From an uncultured Candidatus Saccharibacteria bacterium (GTDB lineage: Bacteria > Patescibacteriota > Dojkabacteria > J137): a stretch of DNA of 64,000 nt. The notes under the pieces are model-generated. The model was not told where the DNA came from and did not search any database. It saw only the letters and a program-made list of their open reading frames with translations. Made by a program: the position numbers and the translations under genes. The stretch is from positions 260,190 to 324,189 of the forward strand of contig CAZSKK010000001.1 of NCBI GenBank assembly GCA_964607415.1, written 5' to 3'. Below are positions 2,933 through 55,235 of the stretch, in pieces (position 1 is the first letter of the stretch; each line of letters begins with the position of its first letter).

Positions 2933-3696
2933 TGCCAATGGCAAAGTTTAATACAAAATCTTTTATACAATTTGTAATAATTTTTCTTTTTGGTGTTTAC
3001 ATTAGATATTTAATTATTACTAAAGGCATTGCATTTTATGTTAATCCCAGGTACTTCAACCTGATTGATGCATCAGGCATTGTTGCAGTTTTTGTCGGTT
3101 TACTTGGGATTGTCTTAGAGATAAGCAAAATTAAGGGTGGATTAAAGATTAAAAATTACAAATTAAAAATTGATCGATTAGTTCAATTTACTATTTCTAA
3201 CGCACTTATAGTTATATGCATAATCATAGGCTTTGTATTACCACCAAAGCAACTTTCAACAAGGGCAGCATCAAACAGGACCTCAAACGCTCAGGCAACA
3301 TTTGATGATAACTCAGACAACATAATTAATAGTTTTATGAGATCCTATGATACATACGATATTGCCGACTGGTTAAAATCATTTAATCGTGAACCTGATT
3401 TGACTTTATATGAAAATATTGAAGTTACTGTTAAAGGATTTGTTTTTGAATCCGATGATCTTGCTGAGGATGAGTTCTTGATTGGCAGGTTTGTAATTAG
3501 ATGCTGTGTTGTTGATGCAACTCCAGTTGGATTAGTTGTCAAAATGACAGACTGGAAAACTAAATATAAAGATGGCCAATGGCTTCAAGTTAAGGGTAAT
3601 TTTAAGATTTTTAACAATAATGATTCTAATAAGCTTTACATCGAACCAGTAGAGATTAATTTAATTGAGACACCCGATAATCCTTACATTTACTAA
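2932..3696 (+). CDS. TIGR03943/DUF1980 family protein (partner of the COG0701 permease)
   Basis: Two N-terminal TM helices plus a C-terminal soluble domain with an RCCVVDA motif. It is translationally coupled to the upstream permease. Confidence 0.55.
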   Translation: MPMAKFNTKSFIQFVIIFLFGVYIRYLIITKGIAFYVNPRYFNLIDASGIVAVFVGLLGIVLEISKIKGGLKIKNYKLKIDRLVQFTISNALIVICIIIGFVLPPKQLSTRAASNRTSNAQATFDDNSDNIINSFMRSYDTYDIADWLKSFNREPDLTLYENIEVTVKGFVFESDDLAEDEFLIGRFVIRCCVVDATPVGLVVKMTDWKTKYKDGQWLQVKGNFKIFNNNDSNKLYIEPVEINLIETPDNPYIY

Positions 3697-3700
3697 ATAT

Positions 3701-5110
3701 ATGAACATTGATTTTAATAAAATATCGATAATTTTTGCAGTAATTTTAAGTCTTTTGGTGGGCATCTTATCATGGATGCTTGAATTTTCACCTCCCAAAA
3801 TCAATAATATTCAGTTGGAAGGCAAATCTGATCAAGCAAATTTCATAAATCAAAAAATAATTATTGAATTTAACACGCCGATGAATTCTGAAAGTGTGGC
3901 TGCGAACCTTTCTATTACTCCATCGACAGAATTTGAATTGTTTTGGTCACAAACAAGTCTAAATGTATCTTTTAAAAAAGTGTTAAGTGCTTCTACAAAA
4001 TACTCCTTAAAAATATCAAAAGATGCAAAAGATATTTACAACGACAAAATCGACAAAGATTTTACCTTTGACTTCACTACAAAAGACGATTTATTGGCAT
4101 ATATTGAAAGATCTGATGATTCAACAGTTAAAAATTCAAAAATTATTCTTACAGACACTCAATTCTCTTTTAAAAATCAGTTATTTACTGGTGCCGATAT
4201 AGATTTTTTCGAATTAAATAGTGACTATCTAGTAGTTGTACAAAACCCCACCAATTCATATTCAACCTTAACTTTAAAAAATCTAAATACATTAACGGAA
4301 GAAAAAATTGAAATCGGCCAATCCAGAATTACTTTTTTAGACTTATCTCCTACTGAAAATAAATTTATTTACATAATTCAAAATGTATTTATTCAAAATA
4401 AAACTGTAATACCCAAACTTGCAAGCGAGATATTTTTGTTTGATGCATCAAATAAAAAATCCCAAAAGATAGATAATCCAGAAACTGCGGCAGATGTTTT
4501 GCAAGCATTTTTCTCACCAGATGGTAAAGGCTTGGTTATAAAAGGTTCAGATTCTGGTTATTTTTTTCAAAGTCTTATGGACAATACAGCACTAGATTTG
4601 GGAAAACATTTAGATGTAAGAGGATTTAATAGTCAAAAAAATAAGATTATGTTTATTGATGCCCCTTTTCAATCTGCCTCAGCTGCCTTTCCTTCAATAT
4701 CGACAGTTGATGGGAAAGGAACTATAGAAAATGTTACTGATGGGACAAACTATGCTATTGACCCGCAGTTCTTTTATTCTTCAGAAAAAATTGTTTTTAG
4801 TGAAAAAGTTCAAGAATTAGAAGGTACGAAGGGATTATTTGCCATAAAAACTTACGATTTGCCAACAGATGAAAAGAAAGATATTTATTTTAACAGCCAA
4901 TATAGTAGCGAGCTACCCACTCTAAGTTATGATGACAAATATGTAATTTTTGAAAAATACTCTCAAAAAGATCTTTCGTCCTTTGAGGGTTTAAGGAACT
5001 TTAGCTTTCAAAGTAAACCGTATAATGCAAACCTTGTTATCATAGATCTAACAACACTGGAGGTTATTGATAAAGGCATTAGAGGCGTGAATGCAGTTTG
5101 GGTGAGATAA
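3701..5110 (+). CDS. Hypothetical membrane-anchored/secreted protein
   Basis: Long ORF with an N-terminal hydrophobic anchor (IIFAVILSLLVGIL). The ATG at 3701 is preferred over the TTG at 3665, which would overlap the upstream gene. Confidence 0.5.
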   Translation: MNIDFNKISIIFAVILSLLVGILSWMLEFSPPKINNIQLEGKSDQANFINQKIIIEFNTPMNSESVAANLSITPSTEFELFWSQTSLNVSFKKVLSASTKYSLKISKDAKDIYNDKIDKDFTFDFTTKDDLLAYIERSDDSTVKNSKIILTDTQFSFKNQLFTGADIDFFELNSDYLVVVQNPTNSYSTLTLKNLNTLTEEKIEIGQSRITFLDLSPTENKFIYIIQNVFIQNKTVIPKLASEIFLFDASNKKSQKIDNPETAADVLQAFFSPDGKGLVIKGSDSGYFFQSLMDNTALDLGKHLDVRGFNSQKNKIMFIDAPFQSASAAFPSISTVDGKGTIENVTDGTNYAIDPQFFYSSEKIVFSEKVQELEGTKGLFAIKTYDLPTDEKKDIYFNSQYSSELPTLSYDDKYVIFEKYSQKDLSSFEGLRNFSFQSKPYNANLVIIDLTTLEVIDKGIRGVNAVWVR

Positions 5111-7648: not shown

Positions 7649-9160
7649 ATGCTAAAAGTAAAACTAATTTTGCCCTTTTTCGGTGTAAGAAACTTAAATG
7701 TTATAAAACTTTCTAAAAAAAGACCATTAATTGATAATTTGTTTAAATTAAACGTAAGTGTTTCGCAAATTATATTTTTAATATTTTTAGCTGTACTACC
7801 TTTTTCGGTTTTATTTTTTTCAAATGAAACCTACGAAACGGCTGTATTTTATGTTTTTTCAACATTAATAATAGTTCAAATAGGTCTTTTTATTAGCTCT
7901 ATCTTTTTGGGTGGAAAAAAAATGCTAATAGATCCAAAAGGCTTTGCTGTAGTTTTGGTTTTTGCTCTGTTAACAACAACATCAGCCATATCAACTGACC
8001 CACCAACCGTTGCAAACACTTTTGGCATTGATGCAATTAGGGGTATGGCAGGAGTTCTGATTATGATGATGGTTGCACTATTTTATTTAATTAATGTTAA
8101 TGTTACCGATTTTAGATTTTTAAAAAAATCAATTTTAAGCTTTGTTGCAGGTTCGATATTGTTGTCTTACTATTTTTTACTTTCAGGTAAGATAAACTTT
8201 TCAAATAGTATTTTTCTAATGACAGCATTAGTTATTGTATTTGGTACCTCTTTTTATTCTAAACGATTTAGATACATACCAGTTTTAGTTTCAGTATTTC
8301 TTTTGCTATTTTTGTATTTAAACGACATTTTTTCTATAAAACAACAAGGATTTGCAATAAGTCCTATTTTGTTAGTTTTTGCTACAGTTATCAGTTCATC
8401 TACATTATTTTTTACTTTATTAATTAAAAATAGAAACTTTTTTAATAAAAAACTATGGTCTATAGCTGAAACTAGTAATTTAACAATGGAGAGGGCTTTT
8501 CTAAAGTTTACAGATTTAATTGTATTATTGATCCCTGCTATTCTACTTTTATTATTTATTTATTTGGAAGTTGAAAAAGTTCAATTTGAAGATTTTATTT
8601 CAAATGCAGTTGATGATTTTGAAGGCGCGTGGAATGCAATAAGCTTGGATACGGTTGATTCTACAGTAAGAATAAGGAATATCGTATTTGGAATAGGTGG
8701 GGATTATTCGTTTGCAGGTAGATCTTTGTTGGCAAGTATTCTAACAGTTCAAGGAATCGTAGGGCTTTTTGCATATCTTTTGCTTTGGGTCTATTCTATA
8801 TTCTTATCACTAAAAGTAACTTTGTTGTCTTTTAGAAAAACAAATTATTATAAGCTTATACTTCCTTTTTCTTTTATTATAATATTTGTCCCTGTTTTAA
8901 GTATTTTTACATATTCTGGAATAATATTAATAATTTTGTTCTGGCTTTCACTAGGCATTTTAACTGCAAGTTATTCTATCCTGAAAAGATCAAATAAGCT
9001 TTTTTATAGTGAAAAGTATTGGCAAGTAGAAAATTTAAAATTTAGTAGTAGAGATTTAGGAAAAAACTCAACCCCAGTAAGGATAGTTTTAAGTTTAATT
9101 ACACTTGCAATCACAATTGTTTCAGTATATCTTATGATTAGTACAGTGGGAGAAGTGTAG
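7649..9160 (+). CDS. Hypothetical polytopic membrane protein (possibly O-antigen-ligase/Wzy-like)
   Basis: Over 10 predicted TM helices; family assignment is weak. Confidence 0.4.
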   Translation: MLKVKLILPFFGVRNLNVIKLSKKRPLIDNLFKLNVSVSQIIFLIFLAVLPFSVLFFSNETYETAVFYVFSTLIIVQIGLFISSIFLGGKKMLIDPKGFAVVLVFALLTTTSAISTDPPTVANTFGIDAIRGMAGVLIMMMVALFYLINVNVTDFRFLKKSILSFVAGSILLSYYFLLSGKINFSNSIFLMTALVIVFGTSFYSKRFRYIPVLVSVFLLLFLYLNDIFSIKQQGFAISPILLVFATVISSSTLFFTLLIKNRNFFNKKLWSIAETSNLTMERAFLKFTDLIVLLIPAILLLLFIYLEVEKVQFEDFISNAVDDFEGAWNAISLDTVDSTVRIRNIVFGIGGDYSFAGRSLLASILTVQGIVGLFAYLLLWVYSIFLSLKVTLLSFRKTNYYKLILPFSFIIIFVPVLSIFTYSGIILIILFWLSLGILTASYSILKRSNKLFYSEKYWQVENLKFSSRDLGKNSTPVRIVLSLITLAITIVSVYLMISTVGEV

Positions 9161-9281
9161 CTTAACAGGTTTAGAGGTTGAGAGCTAAAAAGGAAGTCAG
9201 CTCAGATCGAATGATTTTAAATATTTAACGTTAAAACGTTTCAACCTTAAAACTTTGAAACTAAAAATAATTACTTTATCT

Positions 9282-9316
9282 GCTAATAGCTATATGCTAT
9301 AGGCTAATTGCTAATA
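9282..9316. repeat. Heptamer tandem array (GCTAATA GCTATAT GCTATAG GCTAATT GCTAATA) immediately upstream of the Cys-rich protein start
   Basis: Five consecutive 7-bp units matching GCTRWWN, related to the AGCTGAT arrays at 30059 and 45252. Confidence 0.7.
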
Positions 9317-9319
9317 AAA

Positions 9320-11824
9320 ATGTCACGACAAAAAAAGATTTTAATTGGAATTCTTATTTTTCTTACTTTAATTCTTGCTGGAGTTTCAATTTACATAACC
9401 TATAAACTGACTCAAGAGGATCAAGCACCTGAGGATACAAGTGCTTCTGTGTTATGTAGTGCCTTTGATAGCTATGACTCATGTTCAAATGTTGGTGAAA
9501 TAAGATGTAACAATGGTAATGAACAAAGATGTACACGATTTTTCTGTCATGCTACCGATACAACTCAAGCTGCAAATGAAAATAGAGTTAGATGGAATAA
9601 CACAGGAAATACTTGTGGTGGGCAAGATGTTGATGATGGGGAAACCACAAATTTAAATTGTAATGGAGTTTCTTGTACTTTAACTCAATCTACTCAGTGT
9701 GCAAATGCAACAGGAACGATGTTTTATTGTCCAGGTGGCCTAGTTAATGGAAGCTGTTTAGAAAATCCAGTGTCAATTGGTACTTTTCAGCCAGGGCAAA
9801 CAGTCGATGTATCACAGTATTTTACAAGAGGTTGTGGGGGTTATCAAATTGATTTTGAAAGACAAGGTGCAGCACCAGGGTCAGCAACTTGTGGAGCTGC
9901 GACTTTTACAAATAATACCTGTTCACCTACAACTCCCCCACTTGATGGTCAGCAATGTACAAACAGTGCTGGATGTCTAATATTTTTGTGTCCTAATGGT
10001 TGTGGAACTGATGGTAGATGTCAAACAGGTGGAAGTGAAGCTGATGAAGGTGCTACTGTAGTGGTAGATCCAACCTGTTCTGGAGTAATTGGTGGAAATG
10101 GTTGTGGTCAAATCGATGAAATGACTGGTACGGACCCATTGAGTGGAACATTTTGTCAGGTTAGAGCAAACACTTGTGTGGATACTTCAACTCAAGTTTG
10201 CCAACCTGGTTGTAACGATATTTGCGCTCCAAATGCAAATAACCAACAAGGTAATTGTGCAACTGGTCAAATTTGTACCGATGTAAATGGAACAAATAGA
10301 TGTAGACTTGCAACAAATCCTACAAGTGCAACTTGCGAACCTCCAACACAACAACAGACAAGGCAAATTAGTTTTCAAGGAAACGTTTATTGTCAGGATG
10401 GTAATGGACCAGTTTATCAGATTCCAGGTGCTGTGGTTACAGCAAACATTCCTGGCCAAGGCCAATTTTATGAACAAACTAATTCAACTGGAGGTTTTCA
10501 GTTTGATAGGCAAAACTTAACTACAACAAATATGACACTACAGAATTTAAGTGTATCTTTGCCAAATGGAACCTTGCCTACAGGACAGTCTATTGCAGCA
10601 TTGGTAGGTCCTACAGCAACTAATTGTTCAACTGGTACTCAAACTGGTTGCACTGCAGGAACAGGAAATTATTGTTCTACTGGATCCGATCAGTACCAAG
10701 CTTGTACATTAAATGCGCCTCAAATTGTTAATCTTTATCAAAACTTTAACTTTAGATTTACAAACTGCAGTCCTCAACCAAATCAATGTATCGATTTAAT
10801 TGAAGGTGGAGAAGATCCAATTGATGCTGGAGTTGGTAATACTGTAAACTACACTTTACAGTATAGGTTTAATCAAGCTACTAATCCATTCCCAAATATT
10901 AGGCTTAGAGTAGGTCCTTCTGGTACACCTGTAGGAAGAGATTTCTATACGCCAGCAAATGTACTTGTTGCACCAGCAGTAATTTCAAACAATCCTTCCT
11001 ATAATCCTTCAACAGGTATATGGACTTACATATTTACTTGGGAATCTGCTGAAGTAGGTGGTGCTGATGTTGCAGATGGAACGTATGATGTAAGAGTTCT
11101 AACAGATGGTACAGGAGCAAGCGAGGTAACAACCCCTGTTGGTTGTTTGGAAACAATTACCATCACCAATGGAACAACCCAACAGCCAAACTTTCAGGTA
11201 GTTAAAGCTTCTACAAGTGTTTGTGAAGCAGATGGAGATGCTGCAATTAGTTATACTATTACCGTTACTAATATTGGACCAGTAACGGGCGTTATTGATT
11301 TTGTTGAAGACACATTAGATTCTACAGCAATCGCTTTGAACATACTTCCTACAAACATTAATCCTTCCTATGGAAGTTATTCTAATGGAAGAATTACTTG
11401 GATAGGCACTGTAGGGGATAGAACTTATACAGCTGGCCAATCTAGGAATTTTACTTACAGTTTAACTGTGCCAAGAAACAACTTGATTAGCTTTTTAAAT
11501 GGAGTTGACAATCAAGTTGAGGTTGAATTTACTACAACATCAACAAATACAAGAGTCTTCACGCTAACAACAATGTTAACTTGCTCTCTTCCTCCAATTC
11601 CATCAACAGCATTTGGAGATGATGGAGGTAGATATTTACTAATCGGTGGCATGCTAATGGTTATTGCTTTACTAATTTTCAAATTTAGATTGGGTGCTGG
11701 ATATGTAGACAAGTTAATGAATGAAGGCTTAGAATATACTTCAGAAAAGATTACTTCTTCTATGCCTTTTGAAAAAGGAATAGAAAAAAGATTAAAAAGA
11801 AAAACAGGCAAAAAGTCATACTGA
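9320..11824 (+). CDS. Large Cys-, Thr-, Asn-, Gly-, Gln-rich surface protein: N-terminal signal anchor, C-terminal TM helix and short cytoplasmic tail
   Basis: Dozens of cysteines in CxxGxC / TCGG / GCG spacing in the N-terminal ~400 aa; low-complexity T/N/Q-rich middle; C-terminal hydrophobic helix LLIGGMLMVIALLIF followed by a basic tail. Confidence 0.55.
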   Translation: MSRQKKILIGILIFLTLILAGVSIYITYKLTQEDQAPEDTSASVLCSAFDSYDSCSNVGEIRCNNGNEQRCTRFFCHATDTTQAANENRVRWNNTGNTCGGQDVDDGETTNLNCNGVSCTLTQSTQCANATGTMFYCPGGLVNGSCLENPVSIGTFQPGQTVDVSQYFTRGCGGYQIDFERQGAAPGSATCGAATFTNNTCSPTTPPLDGQQCTNSAGCLIFLCPNGCGTDGRCQTGGSEADEGATVVVDPTCSGVIGGNGCGQIDEMTGTDPLSGTFCQVRANTCVDTSTQVCQPGCNDICAPNANNQQGNCATGQICTDVNGTNRCRLATNPTSATCEPPTQQQTRQISFQGNVYCQDGNGPVYQIPGAVVTANIPGQGQFYEQTNSTGGFQFDRQNLTTTNMTLQNLSVSLPNGTLPTGQSIAALVGPTATNCSTGTQTGCTAGTGNYCSTGSDQYQACTLNAPQIVNLYQNFNFRFTNCSPQPNQCIDLIEGGEDPIDAGVGNTVNYTLQYRFNQATNPFPNIRLRVGPSGTPVGRDFYTPANVLVAPAVISNNPSYNPSTGIWTYIFTWESAEVGGADVADGTYDVRVLTDGTGASEVTTPVGCLETITITNGTTQQPNFQVVKASTSVCEADGDAAISYTITVTNIGPVTGVIDFVEDTLDSTAIALNILPTNINPSYGSYSNGRITWIGTVGDRTYTAGQSRNFTYSLTVPRNNLISFLNGVDNQVEVEFTTTSTNTRVFTLTTMLTCSLPPIPSTAFGDDGGRYLLIGGMLMVIALLIFKFRLGAGYVDKLMNEGLEYTSEKITSSMPFEKGIEKRLKRKTGKKSY

Positions 11825-14647: not shown

Positions 14648-16015
14648 CTACAGCTCTATTTCCTCTTTCCAATCAGGAATATAACAATTATCAAATCCAA
14701 ATTTAGCTTTTATTTGTGATTTTAATGCCTCAGCCCTCTCCACTTCAGCATGAACTAAAAATATTCTACTTGTTTTTTCACCAAAAAAGCTGCCTAACCA
14801 TTTTAAATAATCGCTAGAATCTCCATGCGCGGAAAAGCCTTGTAGGTGATGAATCGAAGCATTTACTTTAACGTTAGTTCCACCAATATTAACAACTTTT
14901 GACCCTTCTACAAGTTCTCTACCAAGTGTTCCTTCTGCCTGAAAACCTACAAAAGCTACAGAGTTTTTATTATTTGTGAGTGCTGTCGCCAAGTGCTCCA
15001 TAATTCTACCACCATCAGCCATTCCACTTCCTGCCATAACAACAATTCCTGCTTTTTTAGAAAGCTTTAATGACTGCTTATGCTTTCTTACATATGTTAG
15101 GTTATCAAAATCAAAAAGATTCTTTTCGGTATTTTGAAGCGAGGTCATATAGATTGCAGTGATTCTTTGAGCTAATGGACTATCCAAGTAGAAAGGAATA
15201 TCATTATCTAGTTTTCCATTTTCTTTTGCTTCTCTAAAATCGTTAATAAGGGTTTGAGCCCTTTGCAACGCAAAACAAGGTATAAAAACAGATCCTCCTT
15301 TTGAAATTGTAGTCTTAATAATATCAATTAATGCAGCTACACCCTCATCTTCACTTGGGTGAATTTGTCCTCCATAAAGAGACTCCATTAAAACAATGTC
15401 TGCTTCATATTTATAGTTTGGGTCAAAGCTTTCAATTAATTTATCATTTTCACGGCCTATATCCCCAGAAAACAAGAGTTTTTTTATTTTTCCATCATCT
15501 TCAATTTCAACTTGAATAGAGGCAGCTCCAAGCACATGCCCTGCTCTAATATATTTAATTTTTATACCTTCTACAGGACTAAACTCTTCATTAAAGCTTA
15601 CCGAACGAAATTGTGAAATGGTATTCATTGCATCATCAGTATTATAAACAAGTGCGACTTTTTTAGTAAATTTGCCATAAAACATTCCTCTTTCAAAATT
15701 ACTCTCCTGAATTTTTGCTGAATCAAGTAAAAGTTCAGTACTAATTGAAATTGTATGGTTTGTTGCAAAAATTTCACCCTTAAAGCCATGTTTTACAAGT
15801 TTAGGTAACATTCCCGAATGATCAATATGTGCGTGAGTTAAAAGTGCAAAAGAAACTTCTTCTGGGTTATAAGTAAAATCTTCAAGGTTTCTAGATTCGA
15901 CGTCCGGGCCTTGAAACATTCCACAATCAACAACAAAATTTCCATGTTTAGTTTCTACATAATAATTTGAACCTGTAACTGTATGCGCAGCCCCGCAAAA
16001 TTTAATTTTAATCAT
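14648..16015 (-). CDS. beta-CASP family RNA-metabolising metallo-beta-lactamase (CPSF73/COG1236-like ribonuclease)
   Basis: HAHIDHSG (HxHxDH) MBL motif near the N-terminus, followed by beta-CASP-like region; 455 aa. Confidence 0.65.
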   Translation of the reverse strand: MIKIKFCGAAHTVTGSNYYVETKHGNFVVDCGMFQGPDVESRNLEDFTYNPEEVSFALLTHAHIDHSGMLPKLVKHGFKGEIFATNHTISISTELLLDSAKIQESNFERGMFYGKFTKKVALVYNTDDAMNTISQFRSVSFNEEFSPVEGIKIKYIRAGHVLGAASIQVEIEDDGKIKKLLFSGDIGRENDKLIESFDPNYKYEADIVLMESLYGGQIHPSEDEGVAALIDIIKTTISKGGSVFIPCFALQRAQTLINDFREAKENGKLDNDIPFYLDSPLAQRITAIYMTSLQNTEKNLFDFDNLTYVRKHKQSLKLSKKAGIVVMAGSGMADGGRIMEHLATALTNNKNSVAFVGFQAEGTLGRELVEGSKVVNIGGTNVKVNASIHHLQGFSAHGDSSDYLKWLGSFFGEKTSRIFLVHAEVERAEALKSQIKAKFGFDNCYIPDWKEEIEL

Positions 16016-16633: not shown

Positions 16634-18451
16634 TTATCCAACATCCGGCTTATACGAAAGGTTTCCGCCCAAAAGAGTCCTAATATCTTTAATGTTGTGT
16701 TTAGCCATTGCCCATCTATCAAGGCCTAATCCAAAGGCATAACCTTGCCACTTGTTTGAATCAATTCCAGCCATTTGCAGAACTTTTGGATGAATAATTC
16801 CAGCACCACCCATTTCCAGCCAACCTCTGCCTTTACAAAGTGGACAACCTACCCCATGACAATTGAAGCACTGCATATCCGGACCAACACCCGGCTCAAC
16901 TTCTGGATAATATTTATTTCTATATCTTGTTACAACATCTTCACCAAGATAAGTTTTAAACAAATGCTCAATTGTAGAAATTAATTCGGCAAGGCTTACT
17001 TTTTCTTTTACAACAACAAGTTGATACTGGTGAAAAGTAAAGTGATTGCTTCTGTTAACCTTTTCGTTTCGGTAAACTCTTCCAGGCATTACTACTTTGT
17101 ATGGTGGTTCAAAAGTTTCTAAAACTCTAGCCTCAATAGAAGAAGTTTGTGTTCTTAATAAAATATTTGGTTCTTCAATAAAAATACTATCCTGTAGATC
17201 TCTAGCTGGATGGTCTAAAGGCAAATTTAATCTCTGAAAACAATATTCATCAGTTTCAATTTCAGGTCCATCCATAATGCTATAGCCTAATCTATTGAAG
17301 ATTTCATTTAACTCATTTATTGTTTGAGTTAATGGATGTATATGGCCAATTTTAGGTTTATTAAAATTTAACTGCTTCTGATCTTGAAGTAAATAAGACT
17401 TATCCTTTGATTGAAGTAAGGTTTTTTTAGCATCATTAATTTCAGCATCAATAATTGTTTTAACTTGGTTAACTTCTGCTCCATAAATTTTTCTCTTTTG
17501 TGGATCGATTTGGCTAATTTTAGACAAAGCTTCTTTTAGCACACCATCTTTACCTAAATAAGATCTCCAAAGATTTGTTAGTTCTTCTTCAGTTTTTAGT
17601 AAGCTAAGTTTTTCTTTTGCTTCAGCAATCAACGTTTTTAGTGAATCATTTGTAATTTCAACGCTTGAGCTCTTATCACTACTTGAATCTTGAATCTTAA
17701 TTCCTGAATCTATTAAGTAACTTATGGTAGTTTCATTATTTACACTTACAATATCACTAATTATTATATTTCCCACTTCAGACGTAGATTTGACGATTGT
17801 TCCTCCGTCAGCAACAGATCCAATGCCTTCAAGAGTTAACATTCTTAAAGGTTTGTTTTCAGGCAGATTTGGTTGAAGATAAATTGCTGTTTGTTTTAAC
17901 TCTTCTAAAGAAACCATTTTCCAGCTAAAGTGCATATTTTTATTAATAATTTCGTTTACTTTATCTTGAATTTTTTCTTTTACATCTGAAGGCACAATAC
18001 CTTTGTAAGTTATAAAAGGCTTTTTACCATGATCTCCTTTTTGAGGAGATAATGTATTTGGAGATAGCCCCAGCATAAAAACAGCAAAATCAATTATATG
18101 ACCTGCTGAGTGAATTTGCATATGTTTAAAACGTCTGTCCCAGTTTATGCTAGCCGTTACAACCTTACCAACCAAATCAGTCTTTTCAGTTTTAACATAA
18201 TGGCCGATTTCACCATCTTTAACTAAAACTTGATACACATCCAATTTTGTTCCATCATCTAAACTTAGTATTCCTTGATCTGTAGGTTGACCCCCTCCCA
18301 TTGGATAAAACACTGTTTTATCCAAAATGATTTTAGCTGCATCGCCTTCAGGAATTACTTCAAGAATTTTTGCTTTGGTTTCTTTTAAATATGGATCAAG
18401 TAGGTATAGTTGTTCTGTTTTCATTTGCTTTGAATTTGTACCTATTAACAT
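16634..18451 (-). CDS. pheS: Phenylalanine--tRNA ligase alpha subunit with an N-terminal AlaX-like (tRNA editing-type) domain
   Basis: C-terminal ~340 aa carry the PheS catalytic core (FQRLNLPLDHPARDLQDSIF, LLRTQTSSIEAR, GRVYRNE, FHQYQ, GLGLDRWAM) after a coiled-coil. The N-terminal ~265 aa match AlaX-M: DPYLKETKAKILEV...ILDKTVFYPMGGGQPTDQG, then HSAGH (HxxxH). The second zinc motif is degenerate (ADGGTIV instead of CGGTHV). Confidence 0.8.
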   Translation of the reverse strand: MLIGTNSKQMKTEQLYLLDPYLKETKAKILEVIPEGDAAKIILDKTVFYPMGGGQPTDQGILSLDDGTKLDVYQVLVKDGEIGHYVKTEKTDLVGKVVTASINWDRRFKHMQIHSAGHIIDFAVFMLGLSPNTLSPQKGDHGKKPFITYKGIVPSDVKEKIQDKVNEIINKNMHFSWKMVSLEELKQTAIYLQPNLPENKPLRMLTLEGIGSVADGGTIVKSTSEVGNIIISDIVSVNNETTISYLIDSGIKIQDSSSDKSSSVEITNDSLKTLIAEAKEKLSLLKTEEELTNLWRSYLGKDGVLKEALSKISQIDPQKRKIYGAEVNQVKTIIDAEINDAKKTLLQSKDKSYLLQDQKQLNFNKPKIGHIHPLTQTINELNEIFNRLGYSIMDGPEIETDEYCFQRLNLPLDHPARDLQDSIFIEEPNILLRTQTSSIEARVLETFEPPYKVVMPGRVYRNEKVNRSNHFTFHQYQLVVVKEKVSLAELISTIEHLFKTYLGEDVVTRYRNKYYPEVEPGVGPDMQCFNCHGVGCPLCKGRGWLEMGGAGIIHPKVLQMAGIDSNKWQGYAFGLGLDRWAMAKHNIKDIRTLLGGNLSYKPDVG

Positions 18452-53236: not shown

Positions 53237-53528
53237 TAGTTTTCTTTTTATAGTGTACTTCGGCCATGTTATAGGTTTACTTGAAATTGATGGCTATGCT
53301 CACCTAATCTTTATAGAACCTAGCTTATGCTACTTTTAAACAACTTGCCTTAAATACAACAAGTATATCTTTTAATTTTACTCTAAAGCTTTAACTCAAC
53401 AAGTTTGTATTTTCATTTTGAGAAAAAATGACAATGTATTAGAATTTAGTATGCTCAATTCGCTGACTTCAACTACCGAAGCTCAGAAATTTATCTTCAA
53501 AGTCTTTACTTTTTATTCTTTATACCCT

Positions 53529-55235
53529 ATGAGGAAAGTACCACTCAAAGCGTTTGGCGTTTTTGCCTTGACGCTGGTTCTTACTTTGTCTGGTTTTTCA
53601 ATGTTTCTAAGTAGCGTACATGCTACGCCGCTTTCAACGTTACAAGAAGATTTTGTAGACTTGGACGACTGGACAAACCTTCACGATAACCTTTATAGTT
53701 CTTCCATAAGCTCTGGTGAATTACTCTTTGCAAACATTCATAGTTTAGGTGTTGGAAAATTAGAATCTGAGTACGTAGAAGTTTCTAATTTACCCCATAC
53801 TTTAACTTACAGAACAAAAACTCAAGGTGCAAAATTTGTAAGAATTCAAGTAAAAGGGTTTGATTCTGATTTTGAACCAACTGAAGAATTTACCTGTACT
53901 GAAGAAAATCTGGAAGGAACAGTTGCGTACGATGAATATGAATGTCCGGTTACACTGTCTGAAGAGAACATAAATACTAGATATGTAAAAGTTACTATTA
54001 TGTTTAAAGCTAAAGTTCCTGGAGGGAAAACATGGTTTGATTATATTTATTTAGACGAAGATACAGTTACTGCAAAGACGTGGCAAGAATTAGGTTCAGG
54101 ATCAGCTTCATCAAACGGAATTTCTAATACTTCAACTGCATCAGAATTGTGGGGCTTGGAATATGATTCCAATGATAATCCTGTTGTAGGCTGGATAGAT
54201 ACGGATACAGGTGTAAGCCATGTTCAAAAATTTAACGGTACTAGTTGGGATGAGCTTGGAGACCCAGGAGATCAAGGTGGATATCTTGCGTTTGACTCAA
54301 ATGATGATTTATATGTAACCTGGTGGGCTCAACAATCTGGCGGTGATAACGAAATCTATGTTAAAAAGTTTGATGGAACAGATTGGGTTGATGTTGGTTC
54401 AGGTTCTGGATCAGGTGGAGGAATTAGTAATAATTCAACTGATTCAGTTGGCCCAAGAATGGTTATAGACTCGAACGATAATATTTATGTAATCTGGCAT
54501 GATGCAGATTCAGGGGATTATGAAATTTATGTAAAAAAATTTAACGGCACAAATTGGGTAGATGCTGGTACTAACTCTTCTTCAAGCGGAGGAATTAGCA
54601 ATAACGGTGGACACTCTTTCATAACTGATATAGAGCTAATGGCTGATGGTGTAACACCAGTAGCCGCATGGCAAGATCAATCAGGTGGAGGTAATAATGT
54701 TTATATGAAAAAATTTAATGGCACAAGCTGGATTGAACTTTACTCAGGCTCTGCCTCAAGTGGTGGGGTTACAGGCAGTAATCAAGCCGGCTTTAGATCA
54801 ATGGCTATTGACTTAACTGACAATATTTACATAACATGGATTGATTACAAATCTCAAGGATCTAATGAAGATATTTACGTAAAAAGATTTGATGGCAGTA
54901 ATTGGTATGAAGTTGGTACTGGTTCGGCATCAAGCTCTGGAATTGGAAATACAGGAACCACATGGGGACATGTTGATATAAATCTAGACGAAAATGGACT
55001 TCCATATGTTGCCTGGGCTGAAACAAATGGTGGTGACTTTGAAACATTTGTAAAGAGATTTGACGGAACAAGTTGGGTTAGTATTGCAGGTTCTGGAACT
55101 GGAACGGGTATTAGTAATACTTCTGCAAGATCTTCCTCACCAAGGGTTAGGATATCATCAACGGGTGTCCCTCTGGTTGCATGGATTGATGCTACACCTG
55201 GAAATGATGAAATTTTTGTAAAGTGGTATAAGTAA
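53529..55235 (+). CDS. Secreted repeat protein, probable 7-bladed beta-propeller
   Basis: Signal peptide MRKVPLKAFGVFALTLVLTLSGFSMFLSSVHA, then about seven ~55-aa repeats each with [YF]VKKF[ND]GT.W...G.GS.SSGGIS. Confidence 0.5.
   Translation: MRKVPLKAFGVFALTLVLTLSGFSMFLSSVHATPLSTLQEDFVDLDDWTNLHDNLYSSSISSGELLFANIHSLGVGKLESEYVEVSNLPHTLTYRTKTQGAKFVRIQVKGFDSDFEPTEEFTCTEENLEGTVAYDEYECPVTLSEENINTRYVKVTIMFKAKVPGGKTWFDYIYLDEDTVTAKTWQELGSGSASSNGISNTSTASELWGLEYDSNDNPVVGWIDTDTGVSHVQKFNGTSWDELGDPGDQGGYLAFDSNDDLYVTWWAQQSGGDNEIYVKKFDGTDWVDVGSGSGSGGGISNNSTDSVGPRMVIDSNDNIYVIWHDADSGDYEIYVKKFNGTNWVDAGTNSSSSGGISNNGGHSFITDIELMADGVTPVAAWQDQSGGGNNVYMKKFNGTSWIELYSGSASSGGVTGSNQAGFRSMAIDLTDNIYITWIDYKSQGSNEDIYVKRFDGSNWYEVGTGSASSSGIGNTGTTWGHVDINLDENGLPYVAWAETNGGDFETFVKRFDGTSWVSIAGSGTGTGISNTSARSSSPRVRISSTGVPLVAWIDATPGNDEIFVKWYK

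Follow-up and report, generated by a model that had tools for sequence, protein, structure and literature searches.

An AlaX-M-type module with an aspartate-variant site, fused to PheS in a Dojkabacteria genome, belongs to a clade found joined to both subunits of phenylalanyl-tRNA synthetase

Our analysis concerned a stretch of 64,000 nucleotides (nt), here referred to as the window, from the genome of an uncultured bacterium deposited as Candidatus Saccharibacteria and placed by its GTDB lineage in the Dojkabacteria (GenBank assembly GCA_964607415.1, contig CAZSKK010000001.1, positions 260,190 to 324,189 of the forward strand). On the negative strand of the window, at positions 16634 to 18451, lies a gene encoding PheS, the alpha subunit of phenylalanyl-tRNA synthetase (PheRS), that carries an AlaX-M-type module at its N terminus. 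The original prediction, made from the DNA letters alone, had described this gene as an in-frame fusion of an AlaX-M-type domain with a complete PheS, and the list of open reading frames (ORFs) bore this out, as the gene constitutes one uninterrupted frame of 605 amino acids (aa) from the first ATG. The single ORF, together with the same architecture in 26 relatives, ruled out a frameshift or two separate genes. The motifs that had been quoted were all present at verified coordinates, and the features of the gene are as follows.

Positions 16634-18451, negative strand: the whole ORF of 605 aa, with the stop codon at 16634-16636 and the probable start at M10, position 18424 (596 aa).
Positions 17714-18424, negative strand: AlaX-M-type module, residues 10-246, comprising an N-terminal beta-barrel and an editing core, as indicated by the NCBIfam AlaXM match, the AlphaFold2 model, Foldseek and a ratio of nonsynonymous to synonymous substitution rates (dN/dS) of 0.087.
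Positions 18272-18310, negative strand: Gly-rich beta-barrel motif FYPMGGGQPTDQG, residues 48-60, without variation among the fused proteins and conserved to at least 85% in the canonical as well as the Asp-variant group.
Positions 18098-18112, negative strand: HxxxH, H114-S-A-G-H118, the first metal/catalytic motif, which is retained; it is invariant in the fused and 119-sequence alignments and aligned to the HxxxH of AlaRS and AlaX-M.
Positions 18017-18037, negative strand: G-D-H-G-K-K-P, residues 139-145, of which H141 is conserved throughout the AlaX-M-like set.
Positions 17795-17812, negative strand: A-D215-G-G-T-I219, the counterpart of CxGxH, aligned to 2zze and 2e1b, with D, G, G and T invariant.
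Positions 17717-17770, negative strand: C-terminal beta-hairpin, residues 228-245, in which the canonical basic residues are lost and which reads D233, V235, V237, N238 and T242.
Positions 17642-17713, negative strand: low-complexity Ser/Asp-rich linker, residues 247-270 (24 aa), predicted to be disordered and varying in length among relatives.
Positions 17387-17641, negative strand: N-terminal helical (coiled-coil) tRNA-binding arm of PheS, residues 271-355, matched by Pfam at 287-351, with model helices at 269-354; unfused PheS aligns from residue 271.
Positions 16655-17365, negative strand: class II catalytic core of PheS, residues 363-599, matched by Pfam tRNA-synt_2d, 69-75% identical to unfused Dojkabacteria PheS and with a dN/dS of 0.011.
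Positions 16835-16870, negative strand: CxxC-x4-CxxC knuckle CFNCHGVGCPLC, with C528, C531, C536 and C539, inserted in a hairpin of the PheS core between class II motifs.

The true start is probably M10, since the homologues all begin with MKT and residues 1-7 are disordered in the full-length model (predicted local distance difference test score, pLDDT, below 50). Profile searches, which had been proposed as a check, supported both domains. In the PheS half, the helical arm was matched by Pfam Phe_tRNA-synt_N (E = 2.9e-13) and the core by tRNA-synt_2d (E = 1.3e-72), which is the bacterial PheS layout of a helical arm followed by a class II core with motifs 1-3 (PF02912, PF01409), and the pheS model TIGR00468 scored 235.5 bits, just under its cut-off of 237.45. 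In the N-terminal half, residues 27-106 matched the C-terminal end of the Pfam tRNA-synt_2c model, which represents the AlaRS beta-barrel preceding the editing core (E = 2.1e-11). The NCBIfam model AlaXM (NF040865) matched residues 12-234 over its positions 1-219 of 234 (E = 1.9e-44); despite this near full-length coverage, the score of 152.1 bits missed the equivalog cut-off of 300 bits.

Modeling of the module alone by AlphaFold2 yielded a pLDDT of 94.4 and a predicted template modelling score (pTM) of 0.90. When the model was compared with solved structures by Foldseek, the editing region of the Pyrococcus horikoshii AlaRS (2zzf) was matched with a template modelling score (TM) of 0.89 on the query, and the AlaX-M structures 9iuw and 2e1b with a TM of 0.83-0.87 normalised to the target. 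As judged from the model, the module thus has the fold of the AlaX-like family (the ThrRS/AlaRS editing fold, SCOP 4001430) in its M form with an N-terminal beta-barrel, and the pocket residues are conserved. In the full-length model, both halves were well folded, while residues 250-263 of the linker had a pLDDT below 50 and the overall pTM was 0.46. The disordered linker and the low full-length pTM indicate that the module is tethered to PheS and not packed onto it. The linker columns were also variable in the alignment of fused proteins, and one relative (P0010) contained about 45 extra aa in this region.

Alignment to the sequences of the solved P. horikoshii AlaRS and AlaX-M structures placed A-D-G-G-T-I of the window protein opposite (A/P)-C-G-G-T-H. 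In the CxGxH counterpart, Cys is replaced by Asp (D215) and His by Ile (I219), and only the central Gly is kept, whereas H114 and H118 of HxxxH are both retained and invariant. Exactly as the original prediction had stated, the module thus lacks two of the four ligands of the canonical zinc site. The residues conserved in the canonical and variant groups alike are GGGQPxDxG, R107, H114, H118, H141, R203, G216, G217 and Y245. D140 sits at the position that we take to be Ser587 of the E. coli AlaRS. With two His, one Asp and a water molecule as ligands, metal binding by the module could remain feasible.

The remodelled site is shared by a large group of proteins. Across 26 fused full-length proteins, H114, H118, D215, G216, G217 and T218 were invariant, and T218 was followed by Ile in the group 1 proteins and by Gln in those of group 2. 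The group 1 proteins, some of them named Candidatus Dojkabacteria, were 56-91% identical to the window protein, and those of group 2 about 41%. When the module by itself served as the query, more than 500 free-standing proteins of about 240 aa with 53-62% identity were retrieved, and every one examined contained HSAGH, GDHGKKP and VADGGT[I/Q]. D215-G-G-T was invariant in an alignment of 119 sequences, consisting of the window module and 118 free-standing relatives at 53-61% identity. An exhaustive HMMER search over 1.84 billion representatives gave 7333 matches, and in a motif table covering the closest ones, canonical AlaX sequences carried P-C-G-G-T-H and one clade carried D-G-G-[T/V], with I, Q, L or, in part of the members, H as the next residue. 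In species-representative genomes, the H-H-D signature was found in free-standing proteins of Chlamydiota, many classes of Patescibacteria and Chloroflexota, among others. Many small-genome metagenome-assembled genomes with a free-standing gene (L011, L019, L022 and others) are titled 'uncultured Gammaproteobacteria' (third party annotation, TPA, assemblies); their gene content resembles that of Patescibacteria, and the taxonomic labels look unreliable.

A comparison of the window gene with that of a 91%-identical relative yielded the dN/dS of 0.087 for the module, compared with 0.44 for the linker (residues 247-285), 0.086 for the helical arm and 0.011 for the core. These values argue for strong purifying selection on the module. 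As the Asp is also invariant and clade-defining, the sequences indicate that the site has been remodelled and maintained and is not decaying, and the description of the zinc site as 'partly degenerate' in the original prediction does not hold. HxxxH/CxGxH has been reported to be universally conserved in the AlaX-like family (PMC12003907), and at the sequence level the Asp-variant clade is an exception to this invariance.

The variant clade also differs in the C-terminal hairpin. T242 of the window protein occupies the position that we take to be AlaRS R693, the residue giving AlaX its specificity for tRNAAla (G3:U70); an Arg conferring tRNAAla specificity on AlaX was reportedly described by Beebe et al. 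2008 and Novoa et al. 2015. Among 107 canonical C..H sequences, the hairpin had a mean charge of +4.2, and 95% carried Lys or Arg opposite T242. In the Asp clade, just 40-45% did so, and the average hairpin charge was -1.7 in PheS fusions, -0.8 in PheT fusions and near zero in free-standing members. The window protein has a hairpin charge of -2, and the net charge of its module is -3, the average of the fused members being about -4. The basic hairpin with the specificity Arg, by which AlaX-M/L deacylases of tRNAAla are recognized, is thus missing from the window module. PMC11295145 notes, with reference to Novoa et al. 2015, that the tRNA specificity of AlaXp may depend on one Arg. The loss of the basic hairpin suggests that the Asp clade no longer recognises tRNA unaided in the manner of AlaX and is consistent with tRNA binding having been passed to a partner.

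To identify such partners, the 150 best representatives of the module search were surveyed for fusions. The module was N-terminal on PheS in at least 10 clusters (50% identity) and C-terminal on PheT, the beta subunit of PheRS, in at least five (P0242, P0249, P0251, P0262 and P0267). The only other partners in this set were DHHA1 (AlaX-L) and one aminotransferase, both on canonical C..H members. In a neighbour-joining tree, the PheS and PheT fusions all fell within a single Asp-variant clade, interleaved with free-standing members. The PheS cores of the other fused lineages were 32-47% identical to the window core, and their modules 35-49% identical to the window module, whereas unfused Dojkabacteria cores were 69-75% identical to the window core. 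The survey of PheS length that had been suggested earlier showed that, besides the 26 fused relatives, many Dojkabacteria-type PheS proteins are unfused and of an ordinary length of about 340 aa. Similarly, no module is present in the nearest relatives of the PheT fusion P0242. Since the fused cores are so much more distant from the window core than the unfused Dojkabacteria ones, these identities indicate that the module joined different PheS lineages independently, and the repeated fusions provide a putative Rosetta-stone link of the module clade to both subunits of PheRS. Two proteins from the representative search are recorded here separately: P0257 (607 aa) is a PheS fusion whose module keeps C..H but shows Gln instead of the first His in HxxxH, and in P0366 (677 aa), a canonical (C..H) AlaX-like domain is joined to a class-V aminotransferase.

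Gene order was examined at 80 loci from species-representative genomes, of which 77 were free-standing genes and three were PheS fusions. On a Candidatus Levybacteria chromosome (L029), the free-standing gene begins 2 nt past the pheT stop codon, in the order pheS-pheT-alaX-like. A conserved operon of the free-standing copies with pheST was, however, mostly absent, as proximity was seen only at this locus and, loosely, at L078. At the Levybacteria locus (positions 2047-3998 of L029, from chromosome OY970292.1), pheT is split into ORFs of 423 and 221 aa by an in-frame stop near 3316-3318, which may reflect an error in sequencing, a pseudogene or a PheT that is truly split.

The original prediction had noted that no pheT lies near the fused gene, and this was confirmed within the 64 kb of the window: family scans identified no large ORF as PheT, and tblastn with two PheT proteins gave nothing better than E = 0.02 over 29 aa. 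An unfused Dojkabacteria genome has the same pheS-rnpA-beta-CASP-gatC-LigT order as the window and likewise no adjacent pheT, and the neighbourhoods of the other group 1 fused loci resemble that of the window. By comparison, the fused pheS is directly followed by pheT in three other lineages in total. In group 2, the order is thrS/infC-rpmI-rplT-pheS-pheT, and in the P0244 cluster (L094), the fused pheS precedes a gene for a full-length 812-aa PheT including B2. As unfused Dojkabacteria share the synteny and three fused lineages have pheT downstream, the missing adjacent pheT is a trait of Dojkabacteria and not linked to the fusion. A standard PheT of 798 aa (P0410) is encoded in Dojkabacteria.

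In the E. coli PheT, the editing residues are betaR244, betaH265 (QPxHxFD), betaG318, betaE334, betaT354 and betaA356 (PMC3553970). The equivalents of the His, the Glu and Thr-x-Ala were intact in PheT encoded beside fused pheS and in PheT-module fusions. As the editing motifs are intact, the sequences indicate that the module adds to editing by the PheT B3/B4 region and does not replace PheT. Compensation for a dead PheT editing site was ruled out on the same ground, with one exception: the PheT that follows the fused pheS at L094 (P0413, positions 8001-10439) has Gln at the position of betaGlu334 (ILQVENFEM), whereas every other PheT examined kept the Glu. Compensation for loss of the PheT B2 domain was likewise ruled out, since the L094 PheT has B2 and yet follows a fused pheS. 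Two variations in B2 were seen among the PheT proteins. Those of group 2 (L003, 11761-13707, 648 aa; L004, 11758-13782, 674 aa) are without the inserted B2 oligonucleotide/oligosaccharide-binding (OB) fold (tRNA_bind), and P0242 and its relatives carry a tRNA_bind domain after the C-terminal FDX-ACB domain and not near the N terminus.

Taken together, we observed the AlaX-M-type fold, the conservation of the site, purifying selection, a disordered tether, fusions to both subunits, one pheS-pheT-alaX-like operon and intact PheT motifs. Our tentative explanation, to which we give slightly less than an even chance, is that the module constitutes a PheRS-dependent, tethered aminoacyl-tRNA deacylase of AlaX-M type from a distinct clade. 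PheRS would hold the tRNA, and the module, either free or on a flexible linker at the N terminus of alpha, as in the window, or the C terminus of beta, would hydrolyse an unwanted aminoacyl ester at the 3' end of that or a just-released tRNA. It would thereby provide a second proofreading site beside the intact B3/B4 site of PheT. Asp may replace Cys in positioning or activating water, which would give a site that is insensitive to oxidation and independent of a protective zinc; zinc protection being no longer needed, the fourth ligand would be free to vary, as Ile, Gln, Leu or occasionally His. PMC12003907 reports that AlaX does not require zinc for catalysis and that the metal protects the catalytic Cys against oxidation, so a Cys-free, zinc-independent variant is chemically plausible. 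In this scheme we infer the catalytic activity, tRNAPhe as the tRNA, the amino acid removed and the redox rationale. The suggestion in the original prediction of a diverged trans-editing module comes close to this explanation; the PheRS context, with a free-standing family and fusions to both subunits, could not be seen from the window at that time.

A more far-reaching version, which we regard as doubtful, is that the whole Asp clade forms a zinc-independent, oxidation-proof deacylase family that serves PheRS and tRNAPhe, not AlaRS and tRNAAla, as a third, AlaX-derived layer of quality control of phenylalanine codons. Such a layer would be free-standing in Chlamydiota, Chloroflexota and many Patescibacteria and hard-wired to either PheRS subunit elsewhere, and it might clear a misacylation product that is not handled by B3/B4.

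Several points weigh against a PheRS-linked deacylase. PheRS already has a working editing site, and we know of no mischarged product that escapes B3/B4. The pocket of AlaX is suited to Ser and Gly and not to aromatic side chains. Support for the deep nodes of the module tree is weak, and since just one or two of the 77 free-standing loci lie near pheST, linkage to PheRS is exceptional in gene order. On contigs of the window's own subgroup no pheT was located, a metagenome scan with a Dojkabacteria PheT having matched only three loci, and its presence in that subgroup is presumed. Finally, the Cys has been reported to be crucial for proofreading in AlaRS and ThrRS (PMC12003907), and an Asp variant could therefore be inactive as a deacylase.

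Other explanations were weighed as well. The module might be an ordinary trans-editor of Ser- or Gly-tRNAAla with the function of AlaX-M and a Cys-to-Asp change, fused to PheRS only for co-expression, stability or general docking and not acting on tRNAPhe. In sequence and fold, its nearest families are AlaX-M and the AlaRS editing region, the majority of free-standing copies lie apart from pheST, and the conserved R203, Gly-rich motif and HxxxH are shared with canonical AlaX. The free-standing relatives are also named AlaX or alanyl-tRNA editing protein by their sources, but these names are automatic annotations. We consider this explanation rather unlikely, because repeated independent fusion to both PheRS subunits, with no other synthetase among the top 150, is hard to explain by chance, and because the basic hairpin is missing together with the Lys or Arg found at one of its positions in 95% of canonical members. 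It is also unlikely, in our estimate, that the module is a non-catalytic tRNA-binding or assembly appendage that aids binding or release of tRNAPhe by PheRS, like the AlaX-like domain (AXD) of apicomplexan TrpRS or the mitoribosomal protein mL39 with its AlaX/ThrRS-like fold. The module is attached either at the N-terminal arm of alpha or at the C-terminal anticodon-binding domain of beta, both of which are PheRS appendages in contact with tRNA, and mitoribosomal chains were among the weak Foldseek matches. Moreover, the AXD of the Plasmodium TrpRS, which has a 72-aa linker, is needed for tRNA binding and aminoacylation and not for editing (PMC3680381), and the catalytic Cys reported to be crucial for proofreading (PMC12003907) is absent here. 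However, the AXD has lost all four ligands (D, S, N, V; PMC3680381), whereas the H-H-D-G-G-T residues of the window module are invariant and, together with the Gly-rich pocket motif, remain so across phyla, which is the pattern expected of a working active site. In addition, the basic tRNA-contact hairpin was lost, not gained, and the module is net negative.

Substitution of the module for PheT, or for lost PheT functions such as editing or the B2 tRNA-binding domain, is very improbable and largely refuted. This explanation, which includes the scaffold replacing PheT functions that the original prediction had proposed, drew on the absence of pheT from the window and on the group 2 PheT without the B2 OB fold. 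It is contradicted by the unfused Dojkabacteria with the same synteny, the standard Dojkabacteria PheT, the occurrence of pheT after fused pheS in three lineages, once as a full-length protein with B2, the preserved B3/B4 editing residues, and the lineages in which PheT itself bears the module.

Comparison with known systems places the module closest to AlaX-M and the AlaRS editing domain. With AlaX-M (P. horikoshii PH0108, 2E1B; P. furiosus 9IUW) it shares the beta-barrel and editing core, a length of about 240 aa, the Gly-rich motif, HxxxH and the central Gly. It differs by the replacement of Cys with Asp and of His with Ile or Gln in CxGxH, by the absent basic hairpin and by the score of 152 versus 300 bits; furthermore, AlaX-M is free-standing and acts on tRNAAla, while the window clade is found fused to PheS or PheT. 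The cis-editing domain of AlaRS (2ZZF, 2ZTG, 3WQY) is the best structural match, with a homologous barrel and core, and is also a module in a class II synthetase. In AlaRS, it follows the domains for catalysis and tRNA recognition on the C-terminal side, and its zinc site is HxxxH/CxGxH, described as invariant (PMC12003907), whereas the window module has a PheRS host, a disordered tether and an H-H-D site. The N2 domain of ThrRS belongs to the same superfamily, represents an AlaX-type module at the N terminus of a class II synthetase and works without bound zinc (PMC12003907). N2 nevertheless keeps Cys and His and has Tyr173 as a shell residue, where the window position is aliphatic (L205 by alignment offset; mostly Leu in the group), and its similarity in fold is much weaker (TM about 0.5, root mean square deviation 7-8 A by Foldseek).

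The AXD of apicomplexan TrpRS (PMC3680381) is likewise an AlaX-type domain with a long flexible linker at the N terminus of a synthetase other than AlaRS or ThrRS. It is AlaX-S-like, without a beta-barrel, has lost all four ligands and is considered non-catalytic, in contrast to the invariant H-H-D site under apparent purifying selection in the window module. PheT B3/B4 and its free-standing derivative CtdA provide a precedent for PheRS-associated proofreading both within the enzyme and as a separate protein. Their fold is unrelated, and as the lineages examined have retained B3/B4 in apparently intact form, the AlaX-like module would be an addition to it.

Full-text literature searches turned up no account of a fusion between AlaX and PheRS, nor of a clade with the Asp variant. 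AARS Online lists AlaX-type editing domains only in AlaRS and ThrRS (PMC11580382), and the database annotation of the fused proteins is automatic, as PheS or 'alanine--tRNA ligase-related'. The clade, which is large and natural, thus breaks both published statements, that of the placement in AlaRS and ThrRS only and that of the invariant Cys site. If active, the module would be a new proofreading partner of PheRS and a natural experiment on the need of AlaX chemistry for Cys and zinc, and it may show how small-genome bacteria of the Candidate Phyla Radiation and intracellular Chlamydiota secure translation fidelity. If inactive, it would show that an AlaX fold has, for a second time and independently, become an appendage of a synthetase. 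The clade is accessible to experiments, as families with free-standing members (Parachlamydiaceae, Waddliaceae, Simkaniaceae and Chloroflexia) include cultivable representatives.

Several minor observations were made on the window and the collected loci. The only tRNA genes within the window are those for tRNA-Gln and tRNA-Ser, no alaS was found in 915 kb of collected loci, and a promoter and terminator scan around the fused gene found no more sites than in shuffled sequence. Four large ORFs on the positive strand had no NCBIfam match at E<=1e-5, namely 9308-11824 (838 aa), 53418-55235 (605 aa), 7649-9160 (503 aa) and 3665-5110 (481 aa). Beside gatC, at positions 14648-16015 of the negative strand, lies a gene for a 455-aa metallo-beta-lactamase/beta-CASP nuclease, whose best NCBIfam match is the type VII CRISPR-associated Cas14 (374 bits, cut-off 800). 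As this gene shares synteny with pheS and rnpA at every Dojkabacteria locus seen, the protein is more likely a housekeeping RNase J/CPSF-like enzyme than Cas14. The CxxC-x4-CxxC knuckle of the PheS core is invariant in the fused alignment, and we know of no such knuckle in textbook bacterial PheS. It was carried by 25 of 26 fused and 81 of 94 unfused relatives; being common in unfused Patescibacteria-type PheS, it was ruled out as a part of the fusion story and looks like a lineage-specific zinc-knuckle insertion in PheS.

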